63,584 nucleotides of DNA, taken from NCBI GenBank assembly GCA_947626025.1, contig CANQQQ010000003.1, forward strand, positions 1-63,584. Reading direction: 5' to 3'. The DNA comes from an uncultured Clostridia bacterium (GTDB taxonomy: Bacteria; Bacillota; Clostridia; TANB77; CAG-508). Position 1 is the stretch's first letter, and each line of letters starts with the position of its first letter. Under the pieces are notes generated by a model. That model was not told the origin of the DNA. It saw only the letters and a list, made by a program, of their open reading frames with translations, and made no database searches. Positions 9,629 through 63,584 of the stretch are shown in pieces. Made by a program: the position numbers and the translations under genes.

Positions 9629-10912
9629 TTATTTTACTTTTGCATTATCAATAATGAATTTAACAACTTTTTCATTAACTATAAAACTTTTAACATAATT
9701 CATAAATTGTTCATTTTTCTTTAATTCATCTGGTGTCTTTCCATAAGTTCCTGCCATTTCTGTAACTTTTGTATTAACAGCATCATCATCTGCTTCAATT
9801 TTTTCTTCTTTTACTATTGCTTCTAAGACTAATCTATTTTTTACTGACATTTTAGCCTGTTCTTCATTGTCTTTTCTAAATTCTTCCATTGTTTTTCCTA
9901 CCATTTTTAAGTAGTTATCTAAAGTCATCCCTTGATATTGTAATCTTGTTTTTACATCGTTTACCATGTTGTCTATCTCTGTTTCAATCATTCCTGATGG
10001 GATATCAACTTCTGAAGCATCACATACTGTTTTTATTGCTTCGTCTTCTGTCTCATATTTTGCTCTATTAGAGTTTTCATTTTCTAGTTTTTCCTTAATA
10101 CTTGCCTTTAATTCTTTTAACGTGTCAAATTCACTTGTATCTTTTGCAAATTCATCATTTATTTCTGGCATTTCCTTCTTTTTTATTTCATGCACTTTAA
10201 CCTTAAATGTTGCATCTTTTCCTTTTAATTCTTCTGAAAAATATTCTTCTGGGAATTTAACATTTACGTCTTTTTCTTCATTTACATTCATTCCAACCAT
10301 TTGATCTTCAAATCCTGGAATAAAAGTATTGCTTCCTATTTCTAGTTCATATCCCTCAGCTTTTCCACCTTCGAAAGGTTTACCATCAACAAATCCCTCA
10401 AAATCCATAACAACTGTGTCTTTGTTTTCAACTGGTCTATCTTCTACAGCAACTAGTCTTGAATTTCTTTCTGCCATTGCATTTAATTCTTTGTTAATAT
10501 CTTCATCAGATACATTGTACTCTATTTTCTTTAATTCTATTCCTTTATACTTTCCTAGTTTTACTTCAGGTTTTGTTTGAATAATTGCTGTAAAAATCAA
10601 ATCTTTTCCCTTTTCCATTTGCTTAACTTCGATTTCTGGCTTACTAACAGCTTCAATTTTGTTATTTTCTAATTCCTCCTCAAATATTGGTGGAACTACT
10701 TCATTAAAAGCATCTTCATAGAATATTTCTGTCCCATATATTTTTTCAGCCATTTCAAATGGAGCTTTTCCCTTTCTAAATCCTGGTATATTAAAATATT
10801 TCGCACTCTTTGCATATACTGTTTTTATTGCTTTATCAAATTTTTCTGCTTCTATTGTAAATTCTAATTTTAATTCATTTGCATTTTCTGTTTTTTCAAA
10901 TTTCATGCTCAT
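9629..10912 (-). CDS. tig: Trigger factor
   Basis: GFRKGKAP ribosome-binding motif, FKBP domain (FIPGFEDQ). Confidence 0.97.
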   Translation of the reverse strand: MSMKFEKTENANELKLEFTIEAEKFDKAIKTVYAKSAKYFNIPGFRKGKAPFEMAEKIYGTEIFYEDAFNEVVPPIFEEELENNKIEAVSKPEIEVKQMEKGKDLIFTAIIQTKPEVKLGKYKGIELKKIEYNVSDEDINKELNAMAERNSRLVAVEDRPVENKDTVVMDFEGFVDGKPFEGGKAEGYELEIGSNTFIPGFEDQMVGMNVNEEKDVNVKFPEEYFSEELKGKDATFKVKVHEIKKKEMPEINDEFAKDTSEFDTLKELKASIKEKLENENSNRAKYETEDEAIKTVCDASEVDIPSGMIETEIDNMVNDVKTRLQYQGMTLDNYLKMVGKTMEEFRKDNEEQAKMSVKNRLVLEAIVKEEKIEADDDAVNTKVTEMAGTYGKTPDELKKNEQFMNYVKSFIVNEKVVKFIIDNAKVK

Positions 10913-10956: not shown

Positions 10957-10985
10957 ATTATACCTAGTTTTTTAAGCTGTGTCAA
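10957..10985 (-). promoter_or_regulatory. Consensus sigma-A promoter for tig(-clpP-clpX-ileS)
   Basis: TTGACA-17 nt-TATAAT on the minus strand. Confidence 0.8.
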
Positions 10986-61526: not shown

Positions 61527-62427
61527 TTTTATTACCTCCTGTCTTTTTTAAAAAAGCTTCTTCTAGTGTTATGATTTCCTCCTTTACACTGTAAATATCT
61601 ATGTTGTTATTAACTAATTTCTTTATTATCTCAGCTGTTTCTTGTTCAGTCGCTGAAATATTGAACTCATTATTGTTTAAAATAGTTACTGCATTTAATA
61701 ATGTTGATATTTTGCTTGTATCATTTACTCTAAATAACACATTATTTTTATTTGTTTCTTCTTTTAATTCATTAATATCTTTAGTGTCAATTACTTCTCC
61801 ATTTTTTATAATACATACCTTTGTGCAGAAATTATCTAATTCAGCTAAATTGTGACTAGAAATCAATACTGCCATTTTTTCTTCTTTAGCTAACTTTTGT
61901 ATAAGTTCTCTTAACTCTTTTATTCCTTCTGGATCTAATCCATTTGTTGGTTCATCTAAAATCAATATATTAGGTCTATGAATAATTGCTTGCGCAATAC
62001 CTAATCTTTGTCTCATTCCTAAGGAATATTTTGAAACTTTATCATTAATTCTTGATTCTAGTCCTACTAGTTTTACAACTTCATCTATTCTAGTTTTTTC
62101 GATATTTTTATATAGATTTGCAATTAATTGTAAGTTTTTATATCCTGATAAATACATGTATAAATCAGGATTTTCAACTATTGCTCCTACTCTTTCTATT
62201 GCTTTTTCAAAATCTTTCTGTATATCATATCCATTAATTTTAACAGTGCCTTTATCAATTCTTTGAAGCCCTAAAATAAGTTTAATTGTTGTAGTTTTTC
62301 CTGCGCCGTTAGGTCCTATAAAGCCCAAAATATCTCCACTTTCTAGTTTTGTTGACACATCTTTTATTATTGTTTTTTTTCCAATCTTTTTAAATAGATT
62401 ATTACACTCTAAAACAACATCTCCCAC
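61519..62427 (-). CDS. ABC exporter ATP-binding protein (BcrA/lantibiotic-immunity type)
   Basis: GPNGAGKTT, YSLGMRQRLGIA, LDEPTNGLD, SSH. Confidence 0.93.
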   Translation of the reverse strand: MGDVVLECNNLFKKIGKKTIIKDVSTKLESGDILGFIGPNGAGKTTTIKLILGLQRIDKGTVKINGYDIQKDFEKAIERVGAIVENPDLYMYLSGYKNLQLIANLYKNIEKTRIDEVVKLVGLESRINDKVSKYSLGMRQRLGIAQAIIHRPNILILDEPTNGLDPEGIKELRELIQKLAKEEKMAVLISSHNLAELDNFCTKVCIIKNGEVIDTKDINELKEETNKNNVLFRVNDTSKISTLLNAVTILNNNEFNISATEQETAEIIKKLVNNNIDIYSVKEEIITLEEAFLKKTGGNKIV

Positions 62428-62794
62428 TTTATTCCCTCCTTTATTTCTGCTTATAATCTTATCACTTATATATTTTTATTTCAATATCACTCTAAAAAAA
62501 GCAAATATGTAAATGTTTTCCTACATGCCTCCACTTGTGGAAACCTTTATTAACAAATATACCACTTCCACCAACACGTATGTTGTTATAATCAGGTAAA
62601 CAGATAACATATTCTTGTTTTATATTTTCATGAAATAATTTTTTAGTCGAAGAATATATATTCAATAAATATAATGCATATAGTTAAATAGTACAGATTA
62701 GGACGTGACGAAGTGATAACAACATCCACGATACACCGTAATGTAATACAGGAGTAATTTTATATTTTTTTGCAAAAAAATGTTTGCTTTTTTA

Positions 62795-62823
62795 TTGTTT
62801 TATTGTAAAACATATGTTATACT
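62795..62823 (+). promoter_or_regulatory. Promoter for the small hydrophobic peptide
   Basis: TTGTTT-17 nt-TATACT with TG extension. Confidence 0.6.
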
Positions 62824-62899
62824 ATCTGACATAGGAAATGATAATAATCAGATGTGGTTTTGCTACCAATTTTTACGAATCTTCGTAGGAGAGGTGGTG

Positions 62900-63019
62900 A
62901 TGTTTATGGTTAAAGTAATACTATTTTTTATTATAGCATTTATATTATCTTTAACATTAAACGTTGCCTTGGCTACAGTTCTTTATAAGAACTGGGTTGA
63001 TAAGCAACTACATAAATAA
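62900..63019 (+). CDS. Small single-TM peptide, candidate type I toxin
   Basis: AGGAGAGGTG RBS; MFMVKVILFFIIAFILSLTLNVALATVLYKNWVDKQLHK; the track ORF start at 62780 is too far upstream. Confidence 0.7.
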   Translation: MFMVKVILFFIIAFILSLTLNVALATVLYKNWVDKQLHK

Positions 63020-63106
63020 TAAAAACTCACATCTGTAACTTTGACGAATAGATGTGAGTTTTCACGTATTTTCGGCAAAACCACGTTTGTGGATTTGTCA
63101 TTTCCT
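63017..63106 (-). ncRNA. Candidate antisense antitoxin RNA, about 90 nt (ends approximate)
   Basis: Perfect promoter at 63113-63141, no downstream ORF, ends in a 13-bp hairpin plus U-run. Confidence 0.65.
63022..63062. terminator. Hairpin shared by the peptide gene and the antisense RNA
   Basis: aaaactcacatct-15 nt-agatgtgagtttt; the U-tract is longer on the minus strand. Confidence 0.75.
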
Positions 63107-63112
63107 ATTTTT

Positions 63113-63141
63113 ATTATATATAGATTATTTAATTTTGTCAA
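63113..63141 (-). promoter_or_regulatory. Perfect consensus sigma-A promoter
   Basis: TTGACA-17 nt-TATAAT on the minus strand. Confidence 0.85.
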
Positions 63142-63233
63142 ATGCTATTTTTTCAATAATTTCAAATAAGCTATAATATTATATAAAGAAAGCTGCCTTT
63201 ATAGAGTACTAAATCCCATAAAAACGCCTAGAC

Positions 63234-63280
63234 TGGTTGGGGTAGTAGGATTCGAACCTACGCATGTCGGAGTCAGAGTC
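63234..63280 (-). tRNA. 3' 47-nt fragment of tRNA-Gln(CTG), probable att-site duplicate and not a functional tRNA
   Basis: GA-CTCTGAC-TCCGA-CATG-CGTAGG-TTCGAAT-CCTAC-TACCCCA-A-CCA; no D-arm or 5' acceptor strand upstream. Confidence 0.9.
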
Positions 63281-63524
63281 TTTTTAATTATTTTATATAT
63301 GTTATCATTTATTGTTATATAACATCTCTTAAAATGGCTCTAAATCAAACAATTTTACCCCAAATTTATCTAAATTTAGTATCTAACACTAATTATAAAA
63401 TAACAGATTTTTATAAACTTTTGTTAGATATTGGTTAGATGTTTTCATTGCATTTATTATAACAGATAATCTACTATTGATAAATAGTTTTTTTAAAATT
63501 TTTAAAATTTATGGAGGTTTAACT

Positions 63525-63584
63525 ATGAAAAATGAAGAATTAGAAAAAGAAATTACAGATAAAAAAACTGGAATAAGTTATACA
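63525..63584 (+). CDS. Partial ORF, resembles the N-terminus of TnpV-family proteins
   Basis: GGAGG RBS; MKNEELEKEITDKKTGISYT, truncated by the window edge; family call from recall only. Confidence 0.45.
   Translation, partial: MKNEELEKEITDKKTGISYT

Follow-up and report, generated by a model that had tools for sequence, protein, structure and literature searches.

Type I toxin–antitoxin pairs are hard to detect by homology. In Bacillus subtilis, the type I antitoxins of the TxpA/RatA and BsrG/SR4 group promote RNase III-dependent decay. Convergent transcription with the antisense gene on the 3′ side is the layout of Gram-positive type I pairs (PMC8594479), and the key determinants of type I toxin mRNAs according to T1TAdb are Shine–Dalgarno (SD)/anti-SD pairs, terminator stem-loops, and 5′–3′ long-distance interactions (PMC8594479). 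In par, both RNAs cross a set of direct repeats (DRa, DRb); this gives them complementary 5′ regions and places the antitoxin over the start site (PMC7472228). SprA1AS and SprA2AS act in trans through a 5′ domain complementary to the toxin start region (PMC8594479, PMC6393315), and the AapA1 mRNA is entered by its antisense RNA through loop–loop kissing, after which RNase III cleaves (PMC5416894, PMC8594479). Among Clostridia, type I pairs are experimentally known from Clostridioides difficile only (PMC6563280). Here we analyze a locus at positions 62795-63141 of a 63,584-nucleotide (nt) stretch of DNA from an uncultured Clostridia bacterium (contig CANQQQ010000003.1 of assembly GCA_947626025.1), the whole of which is hereafter called the window. 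The locus encodes a peptide of 39 amino acids (aa) facing a gene for a small antisense RNA, and it is probably a chromosomal type I toxin–antitoxin-like module of a previously unnamed family. The two predicted products are called toxin and antitoxin below.

A Family of Modules in Uncultured Gut Clostridia

The analysis consisted of sequence comparison and computation, and the hosts are uncultured genome bins. The two predicted RNAs of the window begin with related sequences, ATAGGAAATGA-N12-GTGGTTTTGC on the plus strand (62831-62863) and ATAGGAAATGA-N13-GTGGTTTTGC on the minus strand (63108-63075). The 21-base pattern of these RNA 5′ ends occurs twice in the window against 0.00 expected. Scanning with this pattern, one genome per species, is the source of all counts given below as lower bounds or among the matches listed. 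It returned at least 118 loci, nearly all in bins of uncultured gut Clostridia from rabbit, goat, deer, chicken, and human. Among the matches listed, most form convergent pairs 275-284 bp apart, the N12 version lying on the side of the open reading frame (ORF) and the N13 version on the other, with few exceptions. From the pattern loci, 72 distinct complete modules were drawn and aligned. This first set is biased to conserved motifs, a bias partly offset by a second set selected on the peptide. An exhaustive profile search of 1.84 billion representative proteins gave only 26 matches, none of them named or Pfam-bearing in the first search. The weaker matches exposed diverged subfamilies, and a back-translated scan then gave 80 further loci, including Clostridium sp. 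CAG:245, CAG:567, and one closed 1.7-Mb chromosome.

In total, the family comprises about 200 loci in uncultured gut Clostridia, with several peptide subfamilies, and at least 12 bins hold two or more modules, often of different subfamilies. Judged from these comparisons, the module belongs to a previously unnamed family, widespread and multicopy in uncultured gut Clostridia. Contigs often end inside a module or at its edge, which a repeated element would lead one to expect. A separately assembled contig from this region (L120, Logan contig ERR10663701_23373) has its first base at window position ~62828 and so stops exactly where the toxin transcript would begin, in line with the module being an assembly-breaking repeat.

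A Short Coding Gene and a Candidate RNA Gene Opposite

The preliminary description of this locus had reported a promoter, an SD sequence, and a 39-aa ORF on the plus strand, a perfect TTGACA-17-TATAAT promoter on the opposite strand, and a 13-bp hairpin shared by both transcripts. We located all of these at or adjoining the expected places (table 1), the stem of the hairpin being a perfect inverted repeat. Translation of the ORF gives MFMVKVILFFIIAFILSLTLNVALATVLYKNWVDKQLHK, one transmembrane helix followed by the tail YKNWVDKQLHK, a small hydrophobic membrane peptide within the 20-60 aa of the type I class. AlphaFold2 predicts a single helix over residues 2-37 (pLDDT 94.9). The second ATG (62906, 37 aa) is favored as the start, since the divergent subfamilies begin at the aligned codon. 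The 39-codon ORF is intact in 66 of the 72 aligned modules, and column entropy over the 72 is highest at codon position 3 (0.335), followed by position 1 (0.225) and position 2 (0.084). This order is that of coding-type variation and indicates that the ORF is real. Amino-acid replacements among copies are mostly hydrophobic for hydrophobic. Codons 17-23 (62948-62968) are nearly fixed even synonymously, with 1-3 variant copies of 66 at four codons.

Tryptophan W32 is kept in 66/66 main-family ORFs, and the divergent subfamilies have W or Y at its place, then [ND]K; the core common to all subfamilies is S-x-T-[IL]-N-[VL]-A-L-(x3)-[IL]-Y-x-x-[WY]-x-[ND]-K. Proline is absent from the main-family consensus and occurs in 1 of 78 divergent-subfamily ORFs. 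The peptide would, we infer, damage the membrane when made. Gene callers mostly overlook its ORF. A Pfam scan of the peptide found no toxin family at E <= 10, and searches of Pfam, NCBIfam, PADLOC, and PHROGs returned weak matches to unrelated families alone. A look-up of the exact peptide gave no record, and literature searches found no description of the peptide string or of same-sense toxin/antitoxin homology. One locus, L046 (2245-2525), combines the same toxin leader and antisense RNA with an unrelated 36-aa hydrophobic ORF (MIEASLLTIIYFLLFGLIAETIIVFALIILVIILSK), and a module with this ORF is also found, 5′-truncated, in L069 (~780-1118); the RNA chassis seems portable between toxins.

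The two promoters are conserved at very different strengths. On the antisense side, TATAAT is present in 72/72 modules and TTGAC[AT] in 71/72, with a spacer varying between 16, 17, and 18 nt, and 71/72 main-family copies score 11-12 of 12 matches. The toxin promoter, at the same place and with 17-nt spacing in the 72 homologous modules, is weak: it matches at 7-10 of 12 positions in 71/72 modules and at 11 in one copy, and its -10 box is TG-extended in 25/72. An antitoxin promoter stronger than the toxin promoter is the usual type I arrangement. In the peptide-selected set, an antisense promoter is found at all 71 ORFs with enough flanking sequence; the promoter filter retained 70 of the 71, and in the remaining one, L125, TTGACA is combined with TAAAAT. 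The check suggested at the outset, whether homologs lack the antisense promoter, thus found it kept in the 72 main-family modules and in the peptide-selected set. In the 63.6-kb window, perfect TTGACA-17-TATAAT sites number 2 against 0.10 expected; the other one (10957-10985, minus strand) lies ~45 nt upstream of a minus-strand ORF (9629-10912).

The predicted antisense RNA folds into a 5′ tail, a hairpin that we call SL1, a linker, and a terminator (-28.4 kcal/mol, z = -5.3), block 1 (AUAGGAAAUGA) at its 5′ end being single-stranded. Of 31 subfamily representatives, 30 have a predicted SL1. Its loop is often GAAA, and its stem takes the forms CCAC/GUGG, CCGC/GCGG, UUAC/GUAG, UCAC/GUGA, AUAC/GUAU, and CCAU/AUGG. 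This count comes from per-sequence folds, as cross-subfamily RNAalifold on a MAFFT alignment misaligned the hairpin and gave no structure. The RNA had been described as about 90 nt without an ORF. Its length is closer to 97 nt, and a 24-codon ORF does exist (63101-63027); the absence of any conserved ORF in relatives leaves that description essentially right. The antisense reading frame is not conserved, the sequence past the 5′ domain varies, and several subfamilies have no AUG there. A coding antisense RNA or an upstream ORF was rejected for related reasons: the shared GTGGTTTTGC is read in different frames owing to the 12- and 13-nt spacers, indels shift the frame between copies, and several subfamilies lack an AUG. 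At the sequence level, the antisense RNA gene expected of the type I class is therefore present. No Rfam antitoxin RNA family reached its gathering score in the whole window, and at E <= 10 the region 62400-63584 gave noise at E 3.7-9.8 (n00280, MIR4208, RAGATH-19, IS102).

Asymmetric Loss of the Two Genes

A census of the matches listed comprises 67 complete modules, 15 modules cut by contig ends, more than 20 with a broken toxin and an intact antisense promoter and hairpin, and 6-7 orphan antisense units. Among these matches, the toxin is broken and the antisense gene kept in ~25-30 copies, against 1-2 copies in the reverse state. The broken toxins result from 5′ truncations, frameshifts, premature stops, and promoter deletions. 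In L085 (~1690-1946) and L088 (~290-543), the same deletion, bounded by an ATAAGCA microhomology in the leader and another in the final codons, has removed the whole toxin ORF and left both promoters and the hairpin in place. In L007, the pair is split by an insertion sequence (IS) in the hairpin loop. Such asymmetric loss, with the toxin broken and the antisense gene kept, is expected of a toxin and its antidote. Together with promoter conservation, coding-type variation, and layout, it supports the type I toxin–antitoxin reading put forward in the preliminary description.

A Toxin mRNA Predicted to Fold Closed

The toxin transcript is predicted to start at ~62829-62831 on the plus strand. 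Its single-sequence fold has z = -7.1. The consensus structure derived from the 72-sequence alignment has 99.2% of its cells paired, and shifting the partners by 1-3 columns lowers this share to 32-45%. In this structure, the leader anti-SD GCYACC pairs with the SD GGUGG in 99.5% of cells over the 72 modules, one sequence having a CCGCC/GGCGG double change and one a wobble change. The leader hairpin UACGA/UCGUA is paired in 99% of cells, two sequences showing a compensatory CG->UA change, and the start-codon region pairs with codons 17-23. The minimum free energy (MFE) folds of 32/32 subfamily representatives pair 7-11 of the 11 SD-region bases, mostly with the leader. By duplex energies, which here and below leave competing structure out, the leader binds its cognate SD at -15.5 kcal/mol versus -13.0 +/- 0.43 kcal/mol for re-paired partners (0/5000).

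The leader is also complementary to the other end of its own mRNA. Its nt 11-40 match a stretch that runs from the last codons through the terminator's 5′ arm into the beginning of the loop; in the window, CAGAUGUG pairs with CACAUCUG. Within the leader, CAGAUGUGGUUUU is the element complementary to that arm and to the beginning of the loop. The cognate leader–terminator duplex has -17.5 kcal/mol versus -14.5 +/- 0.46 kcal/mol when re-paired (0/5000) and -8.1 kcal/mol with shuffled leaders. Between subfamilies, the two sides carry matched substitutions, AGCAGA/UCUGCU being replaced by AGUAGA/UCUACU and, in a second set, GAUGUG/CACAUU by GGUGUG/CACACUU. Both an SD hidden by an anti-SD and a 5′–3′ long-distance interaction, as compiled in T1TAdb, are thus predicted for this mRNA. 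The complementarity of the toxin-mRNA leader to its own terminator is, as far as these comparisons go, a new feature.

The Shared Hairpin and Its Two Cassettes

The predicted toxin mRNA and antisense RNA overlap by ~50 nt at their 3′ ends at the sequence level, and the hairpin is the sole perfectly complementary region of the two terminated RNAs. Its stem shows compensatory change at 6/8 pairs in the 72-module alignment. As a terminator, the hairpin suits the antisense RNA better than the toxin mRNA. The mean T count in the 9 nt after the stem is 6.2 for the antisense strand versus 3.2 for that of the toxin, and most of the diverged subfamilies have no U-run at all on the latter.

Two unrelated hairpins, type A (CUCACAUCUG) and type B (AAACCAUUCUGCU), occupy the same site in different modules, and both stay complementary to the same leader, in different registers. 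Two modules lie close together in three loci (L075, L002, and L005), and in all three they are ~100% identical in leader, ORF, antisense 5′ domain, and flanks of 50-125 nt. The only difference is the hairpin cassette of ~45 nt, one copy carrying type A and its neighbor type B. As type B accounts for ~19% of modules (14/72), 3/3 mixed pairs have a chance probability of ~0.03. The swap of a cassette between adjacent copies appears, by this comparison, as a further new feature, and we infer that the cassette would be the specificity determinant. The loops are large, 10-21 nt in most representatives. Large loops and mixed cassettes fit loop–loop recognition, as known from par and AapA1/IsoA1 (PMC7472228, PMC5416894), with selection against cross-reacting copies. 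The same IS end (GTGTACTGAACCCAAAAAGTTGGAC...) lies in the hairpin loop of L007 (1440-3185) and of L045 (~1-287), one a type B and the other a type A module; such loops may be a target of the element.

Homology between Toxin Leader and Antisense RNA

Over their first ~35 nt, the toxin mRNA and the antisense RNA are homologous in the same sense, which in the DNA amounts to an inverted repeat. Like block 1, the element GUGGUUUUGC lies in both the toxin leader and the antitoxin gene. In every subfamily, the leader and the antisense 5′ domain share their first 11-14 nt plus a second block. On the antisense side, this second block makes up SL1's 3′ arm together with the bases that follow. The shared blocks each differ between subfamilies; in L129, for instance, the toxin leader reads AUAGAGAGUAAGUAUAAAGCAGGUGUGUGUGUUACCUCU and the antisense 5′ domain AUAGAGAGUAAGUAACCACAGACAAUGUGUGUUACCUC. 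Identity over the first 14 nt is 87% within modules versus 72% +/- 1.9% in re-paired ones (0/5000). This points to co-evolution of the two sides, since independent drift after one ancient duplication would not give it. As the reading frames differ between the two sides, the constraint on the shared blocks is not a peptide. We regard this co-varying, same-sense homology of toxin leader and antitoxin as another new feature, to judge from the sequences compared.

The pairing of the leader with the complement of the antisense 5′ domain is the one that demands same-sense identity, and it needs a toxin transcript that reads through the hairpin. Such a read-through RNA (62831-63112) folds as a panhandle of 31 bp (-103.7 kcal/mol, z = -11.6), paired at 98.8% in the 72 sequences. 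Transition differences between leader and antisense 5′ domain over 42 nt, which are not independent events, are compatible by wobble with a toxin-sense panhandle in 229 cases and incompatible in 20 (116 vs 17 in the first 14 nt, 20 vs 9 in positions 1-11). The favored transitions, in which the leader has G where the antisense RNA has A, or U where it has C, are those tolerated as G-U in a toxin-sense helix. The read-through panhandle is our leading but unproven explanation of the same-sense homology. A role of the antisense 5′ domain as a trans-acting anti-SD found no support overall, its pairing being no better than the re-paired control (966/5000). In some subfamilies, the 5′ domain can form duplexes of 12-13 bp with the toxin start region (L142, -17.1 kcal/mol; L160, -18.1 kcal/mol), and in L173 12 contiguous bp cover the SD or the AUG. 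In the window's own family, its pairing with the SD or start ranges from -8.5 to -12.5 kcal/mol.

Genomic Context

The window takes up nearly all of a metagenome contig (ENA ERZ27249252 NODE_151, 63,653 bp). This contig also encodes SpoIVA, MutS, GreA, and FeoB, which marks it as chromosomal DNA of a spore-forming Clostridium-like organism. Blastn, tblastn, and pattern scans of phage, plasmid, and viral collections (IMG/VR, GenBank phages, PLSDB) found no copy, which indicates that the module is not carried by known mobile elements.

Modules lie at most 600 nt from a tRNA gene in 14 of 125 cases; placing them at random within those loci would give 5.6%. In 13 of these 14 it is the antisense side that looks toward the tRNA, and in 12 of 14 the tRNA has its 3′ end toward the module. 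With this orientation, read-through from strong tRNA genes would add antitoxin, never toxin, a second indirect sign of toxicity beside the asymmetric loss. The tRNA-adjacent modules include those of L023, L029, L034, L039, L089, L091, L092, and L108, which lie 73-171 nt downstream. The neighboring tRNAs are varied (Gly, Thr, Leu, Tyr, Gln, Arg, Cys, Glu), and the antisense gene is nearly always co-directional with them. In the window, a tRNA-Gln remnant points the same way as the antitoxin gene and stops 127 nt short of the 5′ end of the antitoxin RNA. ARAGORN found no whole tRNA in the window, and the Rfam tRNA match at the remnant is weak (16.2 bits). The remnant starts in the anticodon loop, and the orthologous L091 has an intact tRNA-Gln 115 nt from its module. 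Homology between the window and L091 breaks in this anticodon loop (window 63283-63584; L091 5887-6200), which puts the module just outside an integration scar. The position next to a tRNA att site given in the preliminary description is thereby borne out. An integrative element probably starts at ~63283 and runs off the contig end. Beyond the remnant, a new ORF (MKNEELEKEITDKK...) begins at 63526.

Table 1. Features of the module and its surroundings in the window, and neighboring module pairs in other loci
Feature	Position	Strand	Remarks
Toxin promoter, -35 TTGTTT	62795-62800	+	Read from sequence; 17-nt spacer to -10
Toxin promoter, -10 TATACT	62818-62823	+	TG at 62815-62816 makes an extended -10 (TGtTATACT, 62815-62823)
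Toxin mRNA leader	62831-62867	+	Almost invariant across the 72 aligned modules
Leader block 1 AUAGGAAAUGA	62831-62841	+	
Leader element M CAGAUGUGGUUUUGC, complementary to the terminator 5′ half	62849-62863	+	
Leader anti-SD GCUACC	62862-62867	+	
Leader hairpin UACGA-AUCU-UCGUA	62874-62887	+	Just 5′ of the SD; RNAalifold helix 3
Shine–Dalgarno GGAGAGGTGGTG / SD region GGAGAGGUGGUG	62888-62899	+	Sequestered by the leader in predicted folds
Toxin ORF	62900-63019	+	39 aa from ATG 62900; 37 aa from ATG 62906
Shared hairpin	63022-63062	both	Perfect 13-bp stem 63022-63034 / 63050-63062, 15-nt loop
Candidate antitoxin RNA	~63108 to ~63012	-	~97 nt; block 1, SL1, linker, terminator with U-run
Antitoxin RNA hairpin SL1	63097-63076	-	Core CCAC-AAAC-GUGG
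Antitoxin promoter TTGACA-17-TATAAT	TTGACA 63141-63136, TATAAT 63118-63113	-	Perfect consensus, 12/12
tRNA-Gln(CUG) 3′ 48 nt, att-site remnant	63235-63282	-	Context, outside the module
Neighboring module pairs	L075 420-697 and 2192-2468; L002 943-1220 and 6485-6766; L005 4197-4478 and 4708-4985		

Proposed Function and Alternatives

In the reading that we favor, a type I toxin–antitoxin module, the weak promoter would give a toxin mRNA of ~240 nt built silent by the anti-SD, start-codon, and leader/terminator pairings. The near-consensus promoter opposite would give a non-coding RNA of ~97 nt, the 3′ half of which shows perfect complementarity to the toxin mRNA at the 3′ end of the latter. Produced in excess, this small RNA would pair with the toxin mRNA, first contact being made between the large terminator loops, which are complementary to each other. 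Toxin synthesis would then be blocked by duplex-dependent decay, by holding the mRNA closed, or by both.

Several observations weigh against this reading or parts of it. The hosts are all uncultured bins, and the case, toxicity of the peptide included, is made from sequence. The peptide has no match to any known toxin family in Pfam, NCBIfam, PADLOC, or PHROGs. L022 (2400-2720) has an intact toxin, a usable-looking promoter, and a type B hairpin without an antisense gene, the sole such case among the matches listed; on another contig of the same bin (L069) lies a complete type A module. The strong conservation of the main family leaves covariation thin, the helix between the 5′ untranslated region and the ORF 3′ end being nearly all invariant or changed on one side. 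The same holds for the panhandle, whose covariation is weak. The MFE partner of the leader element varies between subfamilies. Inside the terminated RNAs, no partner was found for the shared first 11-14 nt, which form duplexes of -4 to -8 kcal/mol at inconsistent places. The antisense 5′ domain pairs with the SD at -11.0 versus -10.7 +/- 0.39 kcal/mol (966/5000), not above control, and the dependence among the transition counts belongs here as well. Some of these points would suit a benign small membrane protein, such as a transporter subunit or a protein of signaling or stress response, whose level the small RNA merely tunes. The indirect nature of the evidence for toxicity, the missing toxin-family match, the intact ORF of L022, and the chromosomal location of the modules, outside phage and plasmid collections, are all compatible with it. 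Such a protein is nevertheless improbable in view of the ~25-30 broken-toxin copies against 1-2 of the reverse kind among the matches listed, and of the layered silencing by anti-SD, start-codon pairing, and a toxin promoter that is weak and opposed by an antisense promoter of consensus grade. The several diverged copies per genome, the orientation at tRNA genes, which avoids read-through into the ORF, and the second, unrelated hydrophobic ORF in the same RNA chassis (L046) also speak against it.

The inverted repeat could instead pair the ends of a long transcript in a hok-like, self-contained toxin whose minus-strand site makes no functional RNA. The 31-bp read-through panhandle (z = -11.6), the transition bias, which fits toxin-sense pairing, and the weak U-tract on the toxin strand agree with this. 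On the other side, the minus-strand promoter is consensus-grade in 72/72 modules while the spacer drifts, a strong U-run follows the hairpin on that strand, and SL1 exists in the minus-strand sense only, with many compensatory changes. Moreover, an antisense unit with promoter and terminator survives deletion of the toxin, and we hold a hok-like organization to be very unlikely. We give the least credence to a miniature transposable element in which the two ATAGGAAATGA...GTGGTTTTGC blocks are terminal inverted repeats and the ORF and promoters are incidental. The conserved unit reaches past these repeats and takes in both promoters. When unrelated genomes are compared, their likeness tapers off at the two -35 boxes, without a sharp boundary or a target-site duplication. 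Moreover, the ORF is conserved in coding fashion, and the repeats are broken by side-specific conserved spacers of 12 and 13 nt. In favor of such an element are the co-variation of inverted repeats 275-284 bp apart within an element and the many copies per genome, at which contigs often break. A recombinase-flipped invertible switch between weak and strong promoter was also considered and rejected, the strong promoter being on the antisense side in all 72 modules.

Returning to the toxin–antitoxin reading, we put forward, tentatively and as a scheme more apt to prove wrong than right, that the antitoxin acts by mimicking the toxin leader and not solely as an antisense RNA. The primary toxin transcript would read through the shared hairpin, weak on the toxin strand, into the antitoxin gene. 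Its 5′ leader could pair with the 3′ extension to form a panhandle that loosens the anti-SD clamp. The antitoxin RNA would be an ORF-less inverted paralog of the toxin leader, competing for the same 3′ site with perfect complementarity. Its binding there would reset the clamp and create an RNase III substrate, and the ~45-nt hairpin cassette would serve as a swappable address label keeping co-resident copies orthogonal.

If the type I reading holds, these loci would add a large unnamed type I-like family to the abundant but uncultured gut Clostridia of humans, rabbits, ruminants, and chickens. They provide a sequence and structure signature ready for annotating such loci and an explanation for contig breaks in these bins. 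Same-sense homology, leader/terminator complementarity, and cassette swap together point to a testable regulatory logic, and the parts may find use as compact orthogonal RNA switches or counter-selection markers for anaerobes.

Comparison with Described Type I Systems

The C. difficile pairs, among them CD2517.1/RCd8, CD0956.2/RCd10, and CD0977.1/RCd11, come from the same bacterial class and are convergent pairs of a small hydrophobic ORF and an antisense RNA, multicopy and unannotated until transcriptomics (PMC6563280). Their toxins differ, with 34-53 aa, lysine-rich tails, and locations inside prophages or beside CRISPR arrays or riboswitches, whereas the peptide described here has a YxxW-[DN]K tail and its family shows no prophage or CRISPR surroundings. 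Homologs of the C. difficile toxins are reported to be widespread in phages and plasmids (PMC6563280), where tblastn of this peptide gave nothing. With hok/sok of plasmid R1 and aapA1/IsoA1 of Helicobacter pylori, the module shares a toxin mRNA predicted to be inert through folding and a 5′–3′ long-distance interaction. In those systems, however, the antisense RNA lies inside the mRNA, on the 5′ side of the ORF or across it, and 3′ trimming brings about activation; in the present module it lies at the 3′ end and shares the terminator, and there is no mok-like leader ORF.

TxpA/RatA, BsrG/SR4, BsrE/SR5, and YonT/SR6 of B. subtilis are likewise convergent Gram-positive pairs that overlap at the 3′ side (PMC8594479). 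Part of the ORF lies within that overlap in B. subtilis; in the present module, barring read-through of the toxin mRNA, no more than the final 2-3 codons do. Neither sequence nor RNA-family searches gave a match to them, and the present family is not found in phage or prophage collections. SprA1/SprA1AS and SprA2/SprA2AS of Staphylococcus aureus resemble the module in their cis-encoded antisense RNA on the 3′ side with a conserved 5′ domain outside the overlap (PMC8594479, PMC6393315). Here, in contrast, the 5′ domain is a same-sense copy of the toxin leader. Start-region complementarity of 12-13 bp is found in L142, L173, and L160, and the antisense RNA of the window's family holds just the GCC of the anti-SD.

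The likeness to par/Fst extends furthest. Both have promoters that converge, one terminator in common, whose complementary stem-loops can initiate contact between the RNAs (for par: PMC7472228, PMC8594479), a toxin-mRNA 5′ structure that hides the SD, and an ORF nearly all outside the overlap. Both also have a small one-helix toxin with a conserved tryptophan at the helix end followed by a charged tail. The differences are as clear. The repeats are inverted here instead of direct in the manner of DRa/DRb, so that the RNA 5′ regions are of the same sense, the opposite of the par design. The peptide lacks the PXXXG(C) motif and has no match to Pfam Fst_toxin, nor is there a match in Rfam. The kinship with Fst/par, TxpA/RatA, and BsrG/SR4 suggested in the preliminary description accordingly stands for the layout and fails, for membership, in every sequence and RNA-family test. 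We conclude from these comparisons that par/Fst is the closest system in design, and that the module is best viewed as a separate, new family and a new regulatory variant of Gram-positive type I pairs.

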